DNA from: an uncultured cyanobacterium
GTDB taxonomy: Bacteria; Cyanobacteriota; Cyanobacteriia; Pseudanabaenales; Pseudanabaenaceae
DNA length: 64,000 nucleotides
NCBI GenBank assembly: GCA_963703315.1
Contig: OY969811.1
Coordinates: 3,712,001-3,776,000 of the forward strand
Reading direction: 5' to 3'
The position numbers and the translations under genes are program-made. Shown piece by piece: positions 24,882 to 37,200 of the stretch (its first letter is position 1; every line of letters starts with the position of its first letter). The notes below the pieces were generated by a model that ran no database searches, was not told where the DNA came from, and saw nothing but the letters and a program-made list of their open reading frames with translations.

Positions 24882-26102
24882 CTAGAAACTACCTCGCATG
24901 ACTTGATTGAGCATAGCCTCAACCTGCGTGCCAAGTTGCGTATTACTCATACCCAGTTGATCTAAAACACTCAGTGATAATTCTAGCGATCGCAAAGATT
25001 TACCTTGATATTGGTATTGAAAATGTGAATTACTACATAACTGATAGAGACAAGCCAAGTCGTATAGAGCTTTGGCATAGTCAAACATCATTCCCAACTG
25101 TTCAAAAATAAATGAAGCATCGAGTAATGAGTCTTGTGCGGTTTCGATCGCCTCTTCATTGAGGACATCTAGTCCTTCGAGCAAACGGTAAGTATAGATC
25201 CGACCTCGAATATGTTTGGCGATCGCCATGCCCCTTTGATATTCAAAGTTACGGAAACGAGCCAAAGCATTAGTTTTAATGCAGATTAGACTTTCTTCAA
25301 TTTGGAGATCGCCTAGTAATGCTTCAGCCAAATCACAATATAAGTAACCTAGTTCAATCGAATCAACAGGTTCTTTGAGTAAGACGATCGCATCTTTAAG
25401 TAAGGCGATCGCGGTTTGCCATTGACTCTCAGTGATGGCGACTTTTGCTAATCCTTTGAGAGCTTGGAGTCGCAAAAAGTTATCGGACGTAGTTAAAGAA
25501 ATGTCGAGTGTATTTTGAAAAAGACTTGTCGCTTGATTAATATCCCCCGAAGCTAAATATACTTGCCCCAGATAAGCATAGCTTTTACCTATAGCTGAAT
25601 CATTGGCGGTGGAGTCAAGTCGGATTGACAAAGCTCGTTCAAAACTCATTAAGGCAGATTGCAGATCATTGATGCGTAGATAATATTGACCGATCGCATC
25701 ATCAGTGAGGGCTTTTCCTTCAAACTGATTACCATACGCAGTATAGGCAGCTTGCAGAAGCGTGACAACGTCACTCAATTTCCCTAGTTCGAGTGCCAAA
25801 ATTGCCTTTACATAAAACAGATAAGCTTGCTGCTCATCATTTTCTGAGCCTTGATTGAAGGTATTATCTGCACGTTGAACAAGATCTGCTGCCCTTTGTA
25901 ATGATTCAGGTTGTTTAGTGGCAATTAACTCCACTGCTAAGTCAAGTAAAATTCTTACCTTCGTACTGGAATCAGATTCTGAACTTTTGCTAGTTGTGTT
26001 TTGTAGACATTGTTCAAAATAGGCGATCGCTAAAGTCCGATCTTGTTGCCGCAACTGCTGTCCTTGGATCAGAAATTCAGCTAACTTCATGGGAATCTCC
26101 AA
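24882..26102 (-). CDS. Tetratricopeptide-repeat protein
   Basis: TPR-like units such as IGQYYLRINDLQSALMSFERALSI and LGQVYLASGDINQATSLFQNTLDI. Confidence 0.8.
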   Translation of the reverse strand: MEIPMKLAEFLIQGQQLRQQDRTLAIAYFEQCLQNTTSKSSESDSSTKVRILLDLAVELIATKQPESLQRAADLVQRADNTFNQGSENDEQQAYLFYVKAILALELGKLSDVVTLLQAAYTAYGNQFEGKALTDDAIGQYYLRINDLQSALMSFERALSIRLDSTANDSAIGKSYAYLGQVYLASGDINQATSLFQNTLDISLTTSDNFLRLQALKGLAKVAITESQWQTAIALLKDAIVLLKEPVDSIELGYLYCDLAEALLGDLQIEESLICIKTNALARFRNFEYQRGMAIAKHIRGRIYTYRLLEGLDVLNEEAIETAQDSLLDASFIFEQLGMMFDYAKALYDLACLYQLCSNSHFQYQYQGKSLRSLELSLSVLDQLGMSNTQLGTQVEAMLNQVMRGSF

Positions 26103-32371: not shown

Positions 32372-33430
32372 GTGAGGAATATGAGCCCCAATCGTAATTT
32401 CCACGATCCCATTCGGGTTGGTGTTATAGGTATCGGTAATATGGGGCAGCATCATGCAAGAGTACTCAGCTTGCTTAAGGATGCAGAATTAGTTGGCGTT
32501 TCTGACGTGAACTTAGAGCGTGGACGCGATACGGCTAGTAAACACCGCGTACTTTTTTTTGAGGATTATCACGAGCTTTTACCCCTAGTTGATGCCGTCT
32601 GTATCGCTGTTCCCACCCGCTTACATTACGATGTGGGGACGACTTGCCTCAAGGCTGGCGTTAATGTCCTGATTGAAAAGCCGATCGCCGCCACCATCGA
32701 AGAAGCCGAATCGCTCGTTAAAACTGCTACCGAACATAATCGCATTCTCCAAGTTGGGCATATTGAACGTTTCAACCCCGCTTTCCAAGAATTAAGCAAA
32801 GTTTTAAAGCATGAGACGATTTTGGCGATCGAAGCCGATCGCATGAGTCCTTACTCACAACGGGCTAACGATGTGTCGGTTGTGTTTGATCTCATGATTC
32901 ACGATATTGATCTAATCCTTGAACTAGTCCCCTCAGCGATCGTGCAAGTTTCAGCTCATGGCAATCGCGTTTCGCCAGAATCTAGCTATCTCGACTATGT
33001 GACTGCCACCATTGGCTTTGAAAATGGCGTAATTGCCACGCTGACTGCTAGCAAAGTTACCCATCGTAAAAAACGCAAAATTACTGCTCATTGCAAAAAC
33101 TCGCTTACAGAGTCAGATTTTCTAAATAACGAAATTTTAATCCATCGTCAAACCACTGCCAATTGGACTACTGATTACGGTCAGGTGCTATATCGTCAAG
33201 ATGGCTTTATCGAAAAAGTCTATACCAGCAATATTGAGCCGCTTCACGCGGAGCTAGAGCATTTTGTATCCTGTGTGCGCGACAAAGCCCAACCTTCAGT
33301 CGGCGGTGACCAAGCCCTAAAAACTTTGCGTCTTGCAAGTCTGATCGAACAAACAGCGATCGATGGTCAAGTCTGGCGCAGTTGCGATTTGCAATTACGT
33401 GAAATAGCTACAGCAGGGAGCTACCTTTAA
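32372..33430 (+). CDS. Gfo/Idh/MocA-family oxidoreductase
   Basis: VGVIGIGNMG, LIEKPIA, VGHIERFNP, DLMIHDID. Confidence 0.93.
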   Translation: MRNMSPNRNFHDPIRVGVIGIGNMGQHHARVLSLLKDAELVGVSDVNLERGRDTASKHRVLFFEDYHELLPLVDAVCIAVPTRLHYDVGTTCLKAGVNVLIEKPIAATIEEAESLVKTATEHNRILQVGHIERFNPAFQELSKVLKHETILAIEADRMSPYSQRANDVSVVFDLMIHDIDLILELVPSAIVQVSAHGNRVSPESSYLDYVTATIGFENGVIATLTASKVTHRKKRKITAHCKNSLTESDFLNNEILIHRQTTANWTTDYGQVLYRQDGFIEKVYTSNIEPLHAELEHFVSCVRDKAQPSVGGDQALKTLRLASLIEQTAIDGQVWRSCDLQLREIATAGSYL

Positions 33431-33465
33431 TACCTATTTTGGGGTGAACTCGATTGGTAGATTCA

Positions 33466-33753
33466 CTAATCACCCGAATGAGTAGATGAGACGAGAGATC
33501 GATGCTCACCAGAGATAACCGTTGTACTTAGTAGATGGTGTAAGGCTATCCCATCATCGAGTTCGTCCCACCATATTCCATAACCATCGGATTCAATACT
33601 AAAATTTTGTTGTTGTTCTTCAGCAGCTTGTTTAAGCCATTTCATATTCGTACAGGGAAATATGATAATTCTTCCATCGTTTAGAAAAACTGTAAGTAAG
33701 TCGTTGTGAAAGCAGGCATTCACAATTTTCGTGTTAAGAAAATAATTCATCAT
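33466..33753 (-). CDS. DUF2442-family protein (start uncertain)
   Basis: LTVFLNDGRII.FP....WL..A..EQ..NF.I...GYGIWWDELDDGI.L..LL. Confidence 0.8.
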   Translation of the reverse strand: MMNYFLNTKIVNACFHNDLLTVFLNDGRIIIFPCTNMKWLKQAAEEQQQNFSIESDGYGIWWDELDDGIALHHLLSTTVISGEHRSLVSSTHSGD

Positions 33754-33929
33754 GAATGTGTGGCGGTTCGCCGTGATCGCTTGAATAAAACTGAAATTTG
33801 AAGCCATTAACGATTTTTGATGGCACTGCGATTTATGCCTCAATTAGATTTTATCTTTGCTAATTATACGAATACTTGTAATTATCTCTAAATCTGACGA
33901 TAATGTGATAGTCCGCAAGTTTTAGCAAT

Positions 33930-34967
33930 ATGAACGATCCCTTAGCTGAAAAAATTGGTATTAACGTTCAGGGCGGTACTGTGAATGTGCAGAACCTTAA
34001 TATTGGGATTGCAGAAAGGTTAGAGAAATCAGGAGATGGCGTCAGAATTTTAGTAGTAGCAGCTAATCCTTTGGGATCGTCGCCTCTGAAGCTAGATCAT
34101 GAGGTGAAAACCATCCAAGAGGCGTTAAGGCGATCGCGCAAACGTGATAATTTTGTGGTGGAATATCGACTGGCGGCTACTCCTTCAGAATTGCGCCGTG
34201 CTTTGTTGGATTTGGAACCGCACGTTTTGCATTTTAGTGGTCATGGTGCGGGAGAGCAGGGTTTACTGTTTGTAAGTGATGAGTCGGCAGGGGCGATCTA
34301 TCGTTCGGATAGTGGCGAGGTGCGATCGCGTTCCACTAATACTAATGAAATTAAATTTGTTCCCGCACAACCACTGGCGAATTTATTGCAGCTTTGCGAT
34401 GAACATTTGGAATGTGTGGTTTTGAATGCTTGTTATTCGGATGTGCAGGGCAATGCGATATCTGCAAATATTCCGTTCACGATTGGGGTGCGCGATGTGG
34501 TTGAGGATAATGTGGCAATTAAGTTTTCGCAGGGGTTTTATGATGCGATCGGCGTGGGGAAGGGTTATGAAAGTGCTTTTAAATGGGGGAAGGTGGCGAT
34601 CGAGTTCGATCTGGCAGACGATGAAGCTGCTAAAATTTTAGTTTTAAGGAAAAATGAAAAAACAACAATGACATCTCCGCAATCTCAAGACAATCCGTCT
34701 ATTAAACAATCTGCCCTAGAAAATGTGACGGCTGGCGGCAATATTAATGTCACTATTCATCAGGCGGTTTCTGCCCAATCTACTAAGCAAAATACAAGTA
34801 GCAACATACGACAACAGATGCAACAACGACAGATTGAATCACTCAAAGCTGAAATCGAAGCGATTAGCAACCAGTGGAAATCTGCGCTCAGTGATGAACA
34901 GCGTTTACAATTACAAAGACGTATCGACCAAAAATTTAAGCAATTGGGGGAACTAGAAAATGTCTGA
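33930..34967 (+). CDS. CHAT (caspase-like) protease with a C-terminal helical adaptor domain (EAD9-like)
   Basis: ILVVAANP, L.LDHEV..I, VLHFSGHG (His), VVLNACYS (Cys), FSQGFYDA; C-terminal NQWKSALSDEQR coiled segment. Confidence 0.9.
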   Translation: MNDPLAEKIGINVQGGTVNVQNLNIGIAERLEKSGDGVRILVVAANPLGSSPLKLDHEVKTIQEALRRSRKRDNFVVEYRLAATPSELRRALLDLEPHVLHFSGHGAGEQGLLFVSDESAGAIYRSDSGEVRSRSTNTNEIKFVPAQPLANLLQLCDEHLECVVLNACYSDVQGNAISANIPFTIGVRDVVEDNVAIKFSQGFYDAIGVGKGYESAFKWGKVAIEFDLADDEAAKILVLRKNEKTTMTSPQSQDNPSIKQSALENVTAGGNINVTIHQAVSAQSTKQNTSSNIRQQMQQRQIESLKAEIEAISNQWKSALSDEQRLQLQRRIDQKFKQLGELENV

Positions 34968-36240
34968 TCAAAGACGCGAATCCCATGAAATGCTAATCAA
35001 AGCGCTGCAAGAAGAAATACAGATAGCTCAGAATCAGTGGAAATCAGAGACGAGTGATGAACAGCGCGAAAAACTTCTACTCAGAATAAAACAAAAACAT
35101 GACCAGATAAGCGTTTTGAAGGTTAATGGCAATAACAATCAGCAAGAACAGAAAAGTAGTCCTCAAAATCTAGTAGCGCGAAATCCTGCCATTGAAGAAG
35201 AAAAACTTGGGTCTGGCAATGTCAAAAAACAACCATTTATCCAAACAACAAATATTAAACGCTCTTTTAACAACTTATTGAAAATTGTATTTCTGACTGT
35301 TGTTACGGTTGGTGGTATTACTTATTTCTGGCAAAGTTCAAAATTTAAATCTTCTGAACTACCATATACACCTCCTGTCACTTCTGCTCCAATTCCTAAT
35401 CCTTCTTCAGTCAGTCAAGTCAGTCCCACTCCAAGCAGTAGTCCCACACTCTCCCCCACTTCTACTCCAATTACCAATCCAAGTCAAGTCAGTCCCACTC
35501 CAAGCATTAGCCTCACACCCTCCCCCGTTTCTACTCCAATCCCTAATCTTTCTATAAATTTTGAGAAGAAAGGGCGGGACAAAGCAGCTAAAGGAGATCT
35601 GCCTGGGGCGATCACCAATCATACAGAAGCCATTAGACTAAACCCAAACTATGCTGCTGCTTATAACAGTCGTGCATGGGCAAAATACCTACAAGGTGAT
35701 TTTCAGGAAGGATTAGTTGATGTTGATAAATCTCTTCTACTCGATTCAACAAATGCCAACGCTCAACATACCCGTGGGGCAATACTATTAGAACTTAATC
35801 GTTTTCAAGAAGCTATCGAATCTTTTAACTTTGCGATTAATCTTAATGGACAGTCTGCTATAGCATACCTAGATCGTGGTTTAGCTAAAGCTGAATTGGG
35901 ATACATTCAGGAAGCGATCAGCGACTACGACGAATCTATACGACTTAAACCTGACTATTCGCCTGCTTACAATAATCGCGGATTTGCCAAAGCAATGTTA
36001 GGAGACAATCAAGCAGCGATCATAGACTATACCAAAGCCATTGAAATAAATGCGAATTGGAGAACGAATAAGGGAAGATTACCCAATGTCTATTACAATC
36101 GTGGAAATGCTAACGCTGCATTAAGAAACCCACTTGGAGCATTAGCAGATTTCAGAGAAGCGTCTCGCCTTTTTCAGCAGCAAGGGAATACTGAATGGTA
36201 TAACAAATCTCGCGATAGGATTAAAGAACTAGGAGGATGA
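34960..36240 (+). CDS. Membrane-anchored TPR protein with an N-terminal helical adaptor domain (EAD9-like)
   Basis: N-terminal NQWKSETSDEQR segment; TM LLKIVFLTVVTVGGITYFW; Pro/Ser/Thr stalk; TPRs (AYNSRA, AYLDRG, AYNNRG, YYNRG); 8-bp overlap with the CHAT gene. Confidence 0.9.
   Translation: MSDQRRESHEMLIKALQEEIQIAQNQWKSETSDEQREKLLLRIKQKHDQISVLKVNGNNNQQEQKSSPQNLVARNPAIEEEKLGSGNVKKQPFIQTTNIKRSFNNLLKIVFLTVVTVGGITYFWQSSKFKSSELPYTPPVTSAPIPNPSSVSQVSPTPSSSPTLSPTSTPITNPSQVSPTPSISLTPSPVSTPIPNLSINFEKKGRDKAAKGDLPGAITNHTEAIRLNPNYAAAYNSRAWAKYLQGDFQEGLVDVDKSLLLDSTNANAQHTRGAILLELNRFQEAIESFNFAINLNGQSAIAYLDRGLAKAELGYIQEAISDYDESIRLKPDYSPAYNNRGFAKAMLGDNQAAIIDYTKAIEINANWRTNKGRLPNVYYNRGNANAALRNPLGALADFREASRLFQQQGNTEWYNKSRDRIKELGG
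35413..35506 (+). repeat. Internal duplication in the Pro/Ser/Thr stalk
   Basis: AGTCAAGTCAGTCCCACTCCAAGCA at 35413-35437 and 35482-35506 (69-bp period). Confidence 0.85.
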
Positions 36241-36299: not shown

Positions 36300-36557
36300 A
36301 TGAGTCCCTTATTAACTAAAGTTTTAGCCGCCGCAACTCAACTCAACCCCCAAGAGCAACTACAACTAGTTTCACATCTGGTAAATATTTGGCAGCAATC
36401 ACCACACCTCAATGAAATATCTAATCAAATATCTACCGATAAAACCACTAAAAGCCCAACATTAAGCCGCAAACATCTTTTTGGCTGTATGAAAGGCAAA
36501 ATAAAAATGGCTCCAGATTTCGATGCTCCCCTTGCTGATTTTGCTGAATATATGTGA
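36300..36557 (+). CDS. VapB-like antitoxin (DUF2281-like)
   Basis: C-terminal FGCMKGKIKMAPDFDAPLADFAEYM; overlaps the PIN gene. Confidence 0.88.
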   Translation: MSPLLTKVLAAATQLNPQEQLQLVSHLVNIWQQSPHLNEISNQISTDKTTKSPTLSRKHLFGCMKGKIKMAPDFDAPLADFAEYM

Positions 36558-36949
36558 TGAAATTATTACTGGATACTCATATTTTGATTTGGTTGTTAGA
36601 GGGCAATCAAAACCTTAGCCCTAGAGTCAGACAGGTAATAGAAGATGAAACCAATGCCCTGTATCTTAGCATAGTAAGCTTATGGGAAATTGCGATCAAG
36701 ACCAGCCTTAGCAAACTCCAATTAGAAACTCCACTAGAAAAAATTATCTGTGATTTTGTGTTGCCTAGTGGAATCAAGATTTTACCAATTGATATTGCAC
36801 ATTTACTAACACTACAAAACCTACCATTTCACCATCGCGATCCATTTGATCGCCTATTAATTGCTCAAGCAAAATCAGAAACTTTAATCTTAGTTTCTGA
36901 AGATCGCGTCTTTCGTCAATATCAGGTAAATGTACTCGGACAGAAGTAA
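36554..36949 (+). CDS. VapC PIN-domain toxin
   Basis: LLLDTHILIW, SIVSLWEIAIK, HHRDPFDRLLIAQA. Confidence 0.93.
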   Translation: MMKLLLDTHILIWLLEGNQNLSPRVRQVIEDETNALYLSIVSLWEIAIKTSLSKLQLETPLEKIICDFVLPSGIKILPIDIAHLLTLQNLPFHHRDPFDRLLIAQAKSETLILVSEDRVFRQYQVNVLGQK

Positions 36950-36955
36950 ACCTTA

Positions 36956-37071
36956 TATAGCAAAAAAAGTTGTGCTTAGGACACAAAACCCAAGAAGCGA
37001 GTTGCGGCGCTCCGCGCCGCAACTCGCTTCTTGGGTTTTAGTTTGTACTAACCAACTCTTGCTTTGCTATA
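36956..37071. mobile_element. MITE-like element, TATAGC...GCTATA family (divergent copy)
   Basis: TATAGCAAA/TTTGCTATA ends; AAAACCCAAGAAGCGAGTTGCGGCGC-TCC-GCGCCGCAACTCGCTTCTTGGGTTTT. Confidence 0.8.
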
Positions 37072-37076
37072 TAAGT

Positions 37077-37200
37077 ATGTGGCGGCAAGAGCGTCGAGAT
37101 CTTGACGACAGCACAGTATGGGTACGCAATATTCGAGAAAATGAGTGGTCAAAAGGTAATGACGAATCTCACAATCATTGATACAGATATCTTGATATAG
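37077..37200 (+). pseudogene. Remnant of a second VapBC module
   Basis: MW...DLDDSTVWVRNIRENEW resembles an antitoxin C-terminus; overlapping ATG 37159 gives MTNLTIIDTDILI*, a PIN N-terminal motif. Confidence 0.6.

Follow-up and report, generated by a model that had tools for sequence, protein, structure and literature searches.

Can a caspase-like protease of a bacterium be coupled to an outward-facing sensor by a small helical domain that both proteins carry? The question is raised by two overlapping genes, here called A and B, in a 64,000-nucleotide stretch of DNA (the window; contig OY969811.1, positions 3,712,001 to 3,776,000, assembly GCA_963703315.1) from an uncultured cyanobacterium of the Pseudanabaenaceae. 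Gene A encodes a CHAT protease ending in an effector-associated domain (EAD) of the EAD9 family; in the product of gene B, a second EAD9 copy is followed by a predicted transmembrane (TM) helix, a stalk and tetratricopeptide repeats (TPRs). The original prediction, made from the letters of the sequence, had described the pair as a death-receptor-like system. As judged by sequence comparison, the locus is real, recurrent and under selection, and it belongs to the EAD9-coupled class. We lean towards the view that a Pseudanabaena-type CHAT-protease/TPR protein exists here in split form, and that likely binding between the two EAD9 hairpins stands in for the covalent link present in fused relatives.

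The EAD principle and the EAD9 family (Pfam PF19962) were described by Kaur, Burroughs, Iyer and Aravind (2020, PMC7159879; 2021, PMC8195603). In the 2020 paper EADs are argued to be coupling adaptors from the pattern of fused versus split occurrence, and EAD9 is among those recruiting signalling peptidases.

Domain composition and the shared EAD9 segment

The gene A product matched the Pfam CHAT family with 34.5 bits (cut-off 24) and EAD9 with 31.5 bits over residues 289-343 (cut-off 25). The closest solved chain to its protease domain was PDB 8tl0 (E 1.5e-18), with whose His and Cys motifs H105 and C168 of gene A line up. Both residues, noticed already in the original prediction, were unchanged in eight of eight CHAT-EAD9 proteins. 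The His-Cys spacing in the aligned 8tl0 chain is 47 residues, equal to that of the published SAVED-CHAT dyad H375/C422; because of this spacing, and because the SAVED-CHAT papers are retrieved with 8TL0, the chain was taken to be SAVED-CHAT. By its sequence, gene A is a CHAT (caspase-HetF-type) protease with intact His-Cys dyad motifs, and proteolysis is predicted; the fold model of gene A was poor, the predicted local distance difference test (pLDDT) value of 41.5 for the protease domain being too low for dyad geometry or a fold search. The full architecture was also found in P0001-P0006 and at locus L064 (handles with G, L and P denote genomes, loci and proteins of this analysis), and the closest named relatives were mostly from Pseudanabaena.

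In the gene B product, Pfam found TPR families, and the structure model (mean pLDDT 76.7) has a hairpin at residues 3-65, shows the hydrophobic stretch as a helix and the stalk as disordered, and contains six pairs of helices and a cap. The order adaptor, TM, stalk and TPRs that had been proposed was confirmed. A fold search with gene B returned generic TPR proteins only. Both EAD9 copies were modelled as two-helix hairpins, with helices 291-317 and 322-343 (pLDDT ~80) on the protease side and helices 3-29 and 33-65 (pLDDT >90 across most of the hairpin) on the sensor side. The EAD9 segments have invariant QW and QR residues.

The best ungapped 41-residue window pairs residues 302-342 of A with residues 13-53 of B and holds 21 identities, exactly as counted by hand in the original prediction. 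BLASTP aligned the shared segment with 23 of 53 residues identical (E 1e-9), and its local score of 105 lies far above those of 5000 shuffles (mean 31.5, sd 5.9, maximum 62). The proposed EAD9 type was borne out for the protease copy, which exceeds the Pfam cut-off; the partner copy alone gave no Pfam match, and its clade-mates pass or nearly pass (P0029 25.6, P0032 24.6, P0045 24.3). A single-sequence search with residues 1-60 of gene B found no match at E 0.01 among 5 candidates, and a profile search did find relatives. The two copies are the only ones in their genome. In a tree of 38 EAD9 segments, built from 56 columns only, 13 B-type copies formed one clade (support 98/99); the CHAT-side group was weakly supported (84/79). 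Since the sensor-side copies form their own supported clade apart from the protease-side copies, the pair is not a fresh local duplication, and a recent tandem duplication of EAD9 was rejected. In most rows, a C-terminal copy had its highest score with an N-terminal copy from its own type of system. Purifying selection acts on both copies where it could be estimated, with dN/dS of 0.05-0.34 (four of six comparisons unsaturated) and of 0.05-0.12 for the protease-side copy. Docking of EAD9 on EAD9, for which the comparative evidence is strong, probably tethers the protease to its partner.

Fused relatives in the genus

CHAT-(TM)-TPR fusions in congeners lend strong support, of the Rosetta-stone kind, to joint action of the protease and the TPR protein. 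The CHAT subfamily of gene A was present in 18 of the 48 genus genomes searched, counting the own genome. At all 18 loci outside the own genome, the protease lacks the EAD9 tail and runs on in frame as a cis fusion, with TPR-like repeats (recognised by sight) in 16, a TM and another helical domain in one, and a short broken tail in one. A clear TM separates the protease from the outer part at four of these loci (hydropathy 2.2-3.7) and a weak one at a fifth, and many of the fused proteins end with the same capping helix as gene B. From this comparison, genes A and B together correspond to one fused congener protein, cut where the two EAD9 copies sit. The fused-to-split pattern of this CHAT is the same as that from which Kaur et al. 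argue for EAD coupling (PMC7159879). The proposal of a membrane TPR sensor working with the protease is supported as far as joint action is concerned; the membrane anchor is not general, being present in 5 of 11 partners. Across the class, the subfamily profile matched 10 of 401 genomes, and matches outside the genus were weak.

Beside these fusions, L014:4962-6562 carries a broken CHAT gene followed by a signal-peptide-like TPR protein, before the same DUF2281/PIN pair that follows gene B; a TPR gene similar to that of L014 lies in the own genome at C1:509553-510494.

Recurrence of the split form and the gene junction

The pairing recurs in other genomes and metagenomes. Metagenome locus L064 carries an intact CHAT-EAD9 gene and an EAD9-starting open reading frame (ORF) with the same 8-bp overlap, ended by the contig edge. 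In G068 the last 99 residues of gene A remain as a free ORF, accompanied by an EAD9-TPR gene without a TM and by the same DUF2281/PIN pair. There, the sequence preceding CHAT in the window, L002, L006 and L010 is joined directly to the CHAT tail, which indicates that the protease was deleted. Full CHAT-EAD9 proteins fell into six 90% clusters (6 of 11 matches), one of them comprising 26 members and including a protein found on 47 contigs. The metagenome scan yielded at least 596 candidates, of which at least 3 were confirmed, so that the recurrence is a lower bound. Further pairs (P0001/P0029, P0006/P0028 and P0012/P0036) were inferred from the equal size of the longest contig carrying each member; as a check of this procedure, the size given for P0027 equals that of the G068 contig that truly encodes P0027.

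A shift of one base, at a short A run, separates the two reading frames, and fused relatives exist; this would also suit a single gene for a CHAT-EAD9-EAD9-TM-TPR protein that a one-base assembly error has interrupted or that is translated whole by frameshifting. The overlap has the same form in the window, G068, L064, G033 and G002, and it is replaced by a stop-start abutment in G001; because an 8-bp overlap of this form occurs in five independent loci, an assembly frameshift is ruled out and the artefact was rejected. Moreover, six protein clusters stop at the same place, and one contig of run X1, possibly the source sample, spans the junction (33400-36027) with 0 differences and 0 gaps. The single-gene reading is largely refuted and highly improbable. 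In the small-share runs X2-X4 the junction was not bridged, X3 covering parts of gene B at 96-98%. The overlap suggests that genes A and B are translationally coupled; a promoter scan gave 7 sites against 10.5 expected by chance and was uninformative.

Another origin of the junction would be module shuffling, in which the EAD9/EAD9 junction of a caspase-EAD9/EAD9-NTPase operon recombined into a CHAT-TPR gene and the halves no longer cooperate. The same junction, together with a unit of EAD9 and the short motif 2 described below, occurs in caspase operons of G033, G002, G001, G023 and G027, shuffled products exist (P0008, P0009 and P0034), and the B copy of the window is diverged. This by-product reading is nevertheless improbable, given that the arrangement has been kept even where synonymous sites have diverged almost to saturation (pS up to 0.86), both copies being under purifying selection, that a CHAT-specific B-type clade of 13 rows exists, and that one CHAT-EAD9 protein is found on 47 contigs and its inferred partner on 58. 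As to the products themselves, P0034 is a CHAT fused straight to a B-type EAD9, P0009 has motif 2 ahead of CHAT, and P0008 consists of a CHAT tail, motif 2 and NB-ARC.

Among 599 candidate stretches of viral contigs, no B-type EAD9 relative was confirmed, giving no sign of a phage decoy at that sensitivity; the plasmid search likewise gave no match and, at its sensitivity, no sign of plasmid carriage.

Variable partners and probable membrane topology

The partners headed by B-type EAD9 are diverse. They comprise TPR proteins without a TM (P0027, P0028, P0036), TM-stalk-TPR proteins (gene B, P0035, P0045), a TM-FGS protein (P0032), a TM-COP23 protein (P0047), a TPR protein with a late TM (P0030) and two with tails of no assigned family (P0029, P0048). 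Since a TM directly follows EAD9 in 5 of the 11 and is missing from the partner most often met in metagenomes (P0036, on 58 contigs), the membrane anchor is optional, and the term death receptor fits one allele of a polymorphic system.

For the window allele, the single hydrophobic stretch (residues 106-124) lies between EAD9 and the TPRs, behind a hydrophilic N-terminus of 105 residues. Its hydropathy is modest (Kyte-Doolittle 19-mer 1.78; 2.19 in the orthologue P0035) and its flanking charges are 2/2; those of homologues lean towards a cytoplasmic N-terminus (3/1, 3/0, 5/3). It is fairly probable that the N-terminus is cytoplasmic and that the TPRs face the periplasm or the thylakoid lumen.

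Related EAD9 pairs of congeners belong to known systems, in which a caspase or trypsin goes with an iSTAND-like protein, MoxR and vWA (the canonical operons, in G001, G023, G031, G034), or a caspase with nSTAND1-FGS (G033, G002). The neighbourhood ORFs of the window locus include no MoxR, vWA or VMAP/iSTAND core gene and no NTPase core, and tblastn of the own genome with the MoxR, iSTAND and vWA proteins of G001 (one query each) gave no match at E 1e-5. The original statement that no NTPase core lies nearby was thus confirmed, and membership in the MoxR-vWA ternary (VMAP/iSTAND) systems was rejected. The minimal two-gene design derived from it agrees with the missing core and with the two EAD9 copies, and may be incomplete because gene A has motifs in common with two NLR-type (NB-ARC/TPR) proteins.

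Two further observations concern related proteins. A protein with HTH, TRADD-N-like, repeated motif 2 and EAD9 parts (L059:5105-6052 in G023, and P0007, from which the domains were taken) appears to be a regulator plugged into the same EAD9 adaptor family. At G000:C1:2359565 and 457202, further CHAT proteins with intact-looking His/Cys are fused to an AAA-like domain, each followed by a large AAA-like gene.

Proposed mechanism

The products of A and B, presumably coupled in translation, would most likely assemble through their EAD9 hairpins, and the protease would be held under the membrane, beneath an outward-facing TPR array. Binding of a ligand would then cluster the TPR proteins and bring CHAT domains together. 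We tentatively suggest that such clustering activates CHAT, by analogy with the activation of the CHAT of SAVED-CHAT (type III-B CRISPR) by oligomerisation or filament formation (10.1101/2023.06.23.546230). We give even odds that cleavage of a putative substrate leads to a counter-invader or stress response. Family knowledge, the patchy distribution, the variability of the sensors and the toxin-antitoxin neighbours are the grounds on which activation mode, ligand, substrate and defence role are proposed.

A partner acting as a brake would read the same genes in the opposite sense: EAD9 docking would keep the protease inactive or sequestered at the membrane until it is freed, in the fashion of a toxin-antitoxin pair, by a signal, be it competition or the TPR protein being lost or cleaved. 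Tight translational coupling and the toxin genes (PIN, PemK, TumE) adjoining most related loci would suit a brake, but the fused forms, which are the majority in genomes, cannot free the protease without cleavage, and the partners vary far beyond what a dedicated inhibitor would require; we regard a brake as unlikely.

Several observations weigh against the coupled, clustering-activated pair preferred here. Of the CHAT-side partners scored, none is as diverged as the B copy of the window, which also shows the highest dN/dS (0.34), and the EAD9 of gene A scores lower with its own partner (105) than with non-cognate B-type copies (135-151) or nSTAND-type copies (116-123). G068 retains both EAD9 copies without any protease; several broken or truncated fused alleles (L004/L073, L011/L079, L014) fit a fast-turnover, partly decaying locus. 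A TM-bearing partner was placed beside a CHAT-EAD9 gene in the window only, and its TM is only moderately hydrophobic, with balanced flanking charges. The operon encodes no substrate or death effector, PADLOC matched gene A with its chat and SAVED_CHAT models at the domain level only, and the literature search on EAD9 found no experiment on this domain, of binding or otherwise.

Table 1. Features of the locus, in window coordinates.
Feature	Position	Strand	Evidence or remark
DUF2442 gene, divergent, not a constant neighbour	33466..33843	-	Pfam
Gene A, CHAT caspase-like protease with C-terminal EAD9, 345 aa	33930..34967	+	ORF, Pfam
Motif 1 of gene A, residues 3-25, AEKIGINVQGG type	33936..34004	+	profile search
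CHAT domain of gene A	34038..34658	+	Pfam PF12770, PDB 8tl0, PADLOC
His105 codon of gene A	34242-34244	+
Cys168 codon of gene A	34431-34433	+
Motif 2 of gene A, residues 258-283, ALENVTAGGNINV type	34701..34778	+	profile search
EAD9, protease-side copy, two-helix hairpin	34794..34958	+	Pfam PF19962, above cut-off
Stop/start overlap of genes A and B, 8 bp	34960..34967	+	kept in G068, L064, G033, G002
Gene B, EAD9-TM-stalk-TPR protein, 426 aa	34960..36240	+	ORF, Pfam, model; orthologue P0035 at 67%
EAD9, sensor-side copy, diverged member of the B-type clade	34963..35121	+	alignment, tree, model
Predicted single transmembrane helix, residues 106-124	35275..35331	+	hydropathy
Pro/Ser/Thr-rich stalk, residues 127-191	35338..35532	+	sequence; pLDDT <50
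About six TPRs and a capping helix common to the fused CHAT-TPR proteins of congeners	35542..36228	+	Pfam, model
DUF2281 and PIN toxin-antitoxin-like pair	36300..36949	+	Pfam

Short amyloid-like motifs and the NLR proteins

Gene A carries two short motifs (Table 1) that appear, by their sequence, to be amyloid-signalling-like. Motif 1 recurs elsewhere in the genome, at the N-termini of two NB-ARC/TPR proteins and at the C-terminal end of a 139-aa protein; motif 2 also heads both NLRs and precedes EAD9 in caspase-EAD9 proteins. With profiles built from these copies as seeds, gene A was the top non-seed ORF among 15,639 for motif 1 (49.3, next 39.0) and for motif 2 (60.5, next 29.5). The two NLRs, at C1:38842-41232 (L087) and 1060379-1063882, each start with two tandem short motifs, and the 139-aa protein, about 2 kb upstream of one of them, ends with the second member of that tandem. 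It gave no Pfam match; small motif-bearing proteins of this kind are presumably Bell-like, a label left unconfirmed by Pfam. The 139-aa protein and the NLR at L086 (G000:C1:1060379-1066074) are a candidate amyloid-signalling pair, and a small gene pair and an apparent insertion sequence lie between them.

Since these motifs are common to gene A and the two NLRs, the protease may have a second input. Carried further, templated assembly with NLRs, mediated by motifs 1 and 2 in the manner of BASS amyloid signalling, would be the main way of activating the protease, the EAD9 partner only localising it or serving as a second input. The rank of gene A for both NLR-heading motifs favours this, as do three proteins with motif 2 ahead of NB-ARC (P0008, P0010, P0011) and a CHAT in G429, of another genus, with a motif-1-like start, a frameshifted EAD9 tail and, two genes away, a small protein with a motif-1-like stretch near its C-terminus; an EAD9-NB-ARC-TPR gene of G429 lies on another contig. 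BASS motifs have been reported in Pseudanabaena and beside CHAT domains (10.1101/2020.01.06.895854). In the window's genome, however, the NLR genes are far off on the chromosome. In published BASS pairs the genes are adjacent and the effector carries its motif at the C-terminus; by contrast, gene A has motif 1 at its N-terminus and motif 2 in its interior, and both could be relics of module shuffling. We regard NLR templating as the main route of activation as very unlikely. A combined scheme, a surface-receptor caspase pathway with exchangeable receptors, in which the constant CHAT docks by EAD9 to the strain's outward sensor (TPR, lectin-fold FGS or COP23) and is also recruited by cytoplasmic NLRs through amyloid-like motifs, so that a single enzyme of a filamentous cyanobacterium would join extrinsic and intrinsic death signalling, is quite unlikely.

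At L094:534-2392 (G429), the CHAT gene is followed by genes for a 139-aa and a 148-aa protein with a common C-terminal Q/N-rich motif, the latter also having motif 1, possibly a chain of motif-linked effectors. At L033:5384-9654 (G020), a caspase-motif 2-EAD9 gene is found, with an NLR three genes on whose N-terminus is nearly identical to the CHAT linker of the window.

Comparison with known systems

The locus resembles EAD9 systems in that a small helical domain occurs twice on adjacent genes, at the C-terminus of a peptidase and the N-terminus of its partner, and in that the same peptidase is directly fused in other genomes. In most rows the likeness between copies is also greatest inside one type of system, with the window's own pair scoring lower than non-cognate pairings. 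It differs from the EAD9 systems in the available part of PMC7159879, where the partner is a VMAP, iSTAND or NTPase core, in having a TPR, TM-TPR, TM-FGS or TM-COP23 partner and no NTPase. EACC1 System 4, in the same source, is likewise encoded by two genes and combines a peptidase of the caspase superfamily with a membrane component, the proposed sensor, and with variable fused domains. In that system, found mainly in actinobacteria, the EACC1 TM protein is constant and the caspase carries the variable domains, whereas here the protease is constant, the sensor variable and the link an EAD9 pair. EACC1 membership was rejected, since the 5' gene encodes the protease and the Pfam scan of both genes found no EACC1 domain. 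With SAVED-CHAT the protease has its closest solved relative, the same His-Cys spacing included; unlike there, no SAVED domain, cyclic-nucleotide input, CRISPR or PCaspase was seen in the operon.

In animals, death receptors (Fas/TNFR) signal through FADD and caspase-8. The likeness proposed in the original prediction holds for the logic of a probably outer sensor, a single predicted TM, a putatively homotypic helical adaptor and a caspase-fold protease. It does not extend to the parts, the adaptor being a two-helix hairpin instead of the six-helix Death fold, the probable topology N-in with a TPR ectodomain, the TM optional, and a separate adaptor protein missing. Membership in the Death superfamily was rejected, both EAD9 copies being about 55 residues long and modelled as two-helix hairpins. 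Death-receptor background is given in PMC8195603. Bacterial CARD-like adaptors have been tested experimentally in gasdermin systems (PMC10312443), from which the window differs in that no gasdermin was seen in the operon. By description, the motifs of gene A resemble those of BASS as ~25-residue, G/N/Q/V/I-rich motifs common to NLR N-termini and effector-like proteins. They differ from BASS in being N-terminal and internal with no adjacent NLR.

Membrane-spanning caspase homologues with outer sensor domains in cyanobacteria (PMC3501461) and NTPase-FGS systems with paired EADs (PMC8195603) have been noted before. The literature searched on EAD9, on effector-associated domains with caspases and on cyanobacterial CHAT/TPR/TM proteins describes no NTPase-free pair of CHAT-EAD9 and EAD9-sensor genes, with the limits that the source data of PMC7159879 may list one and that subscription literature was thinly covered. 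What is new is the NTPase-free EAD9-coupled pair with its fused-to-split series; the principle of EAD coupling is known. Homotypic EAD coupling is a computational proposal of 2020, and two small genes without an NTPase make it directly testable, with a natural control series of fused, split and protease-deleted forms, with and without membrane anchor, in one genus. Should signals pass the membrane through the membrane alleles, these would constitute a bacterial module of sensor, TM, adaptor and caspase whose parts have no relation to Death domains, a convergent design, and the swappable sensors would hint at what filamentous freshwater cyanobacteria monitor at the cell surface.

Neighbourhood

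Toxin-antitoxin genes had been proposed on both sides of the locus. This holds downstream, where the DUF2281 and PIN genes follow gene B as they follow the TPR gene in L003, L009, L014, L055 and L076; the upstream side has just one DUF2442 gene, oppositely oriented and with a putative toxin-antitoxin role. At related loci, 13 of 15 neighbour ORFs matched PIN, PemK or TumE, a biased sample picked by hand for toxin look. A 406-aa helical-repeat protein is encoded about 8 kb upstream (24882-26102, minus strand). Beyond the DUF2281/PIN pair, a long perfect inverted repeat at 36953-37035, multi-copy in the sequencing runs and in relatives, is REP-like or a terminator, and apparent remnants of another antitoxin/PIN pair follow it at about 37080-37200.

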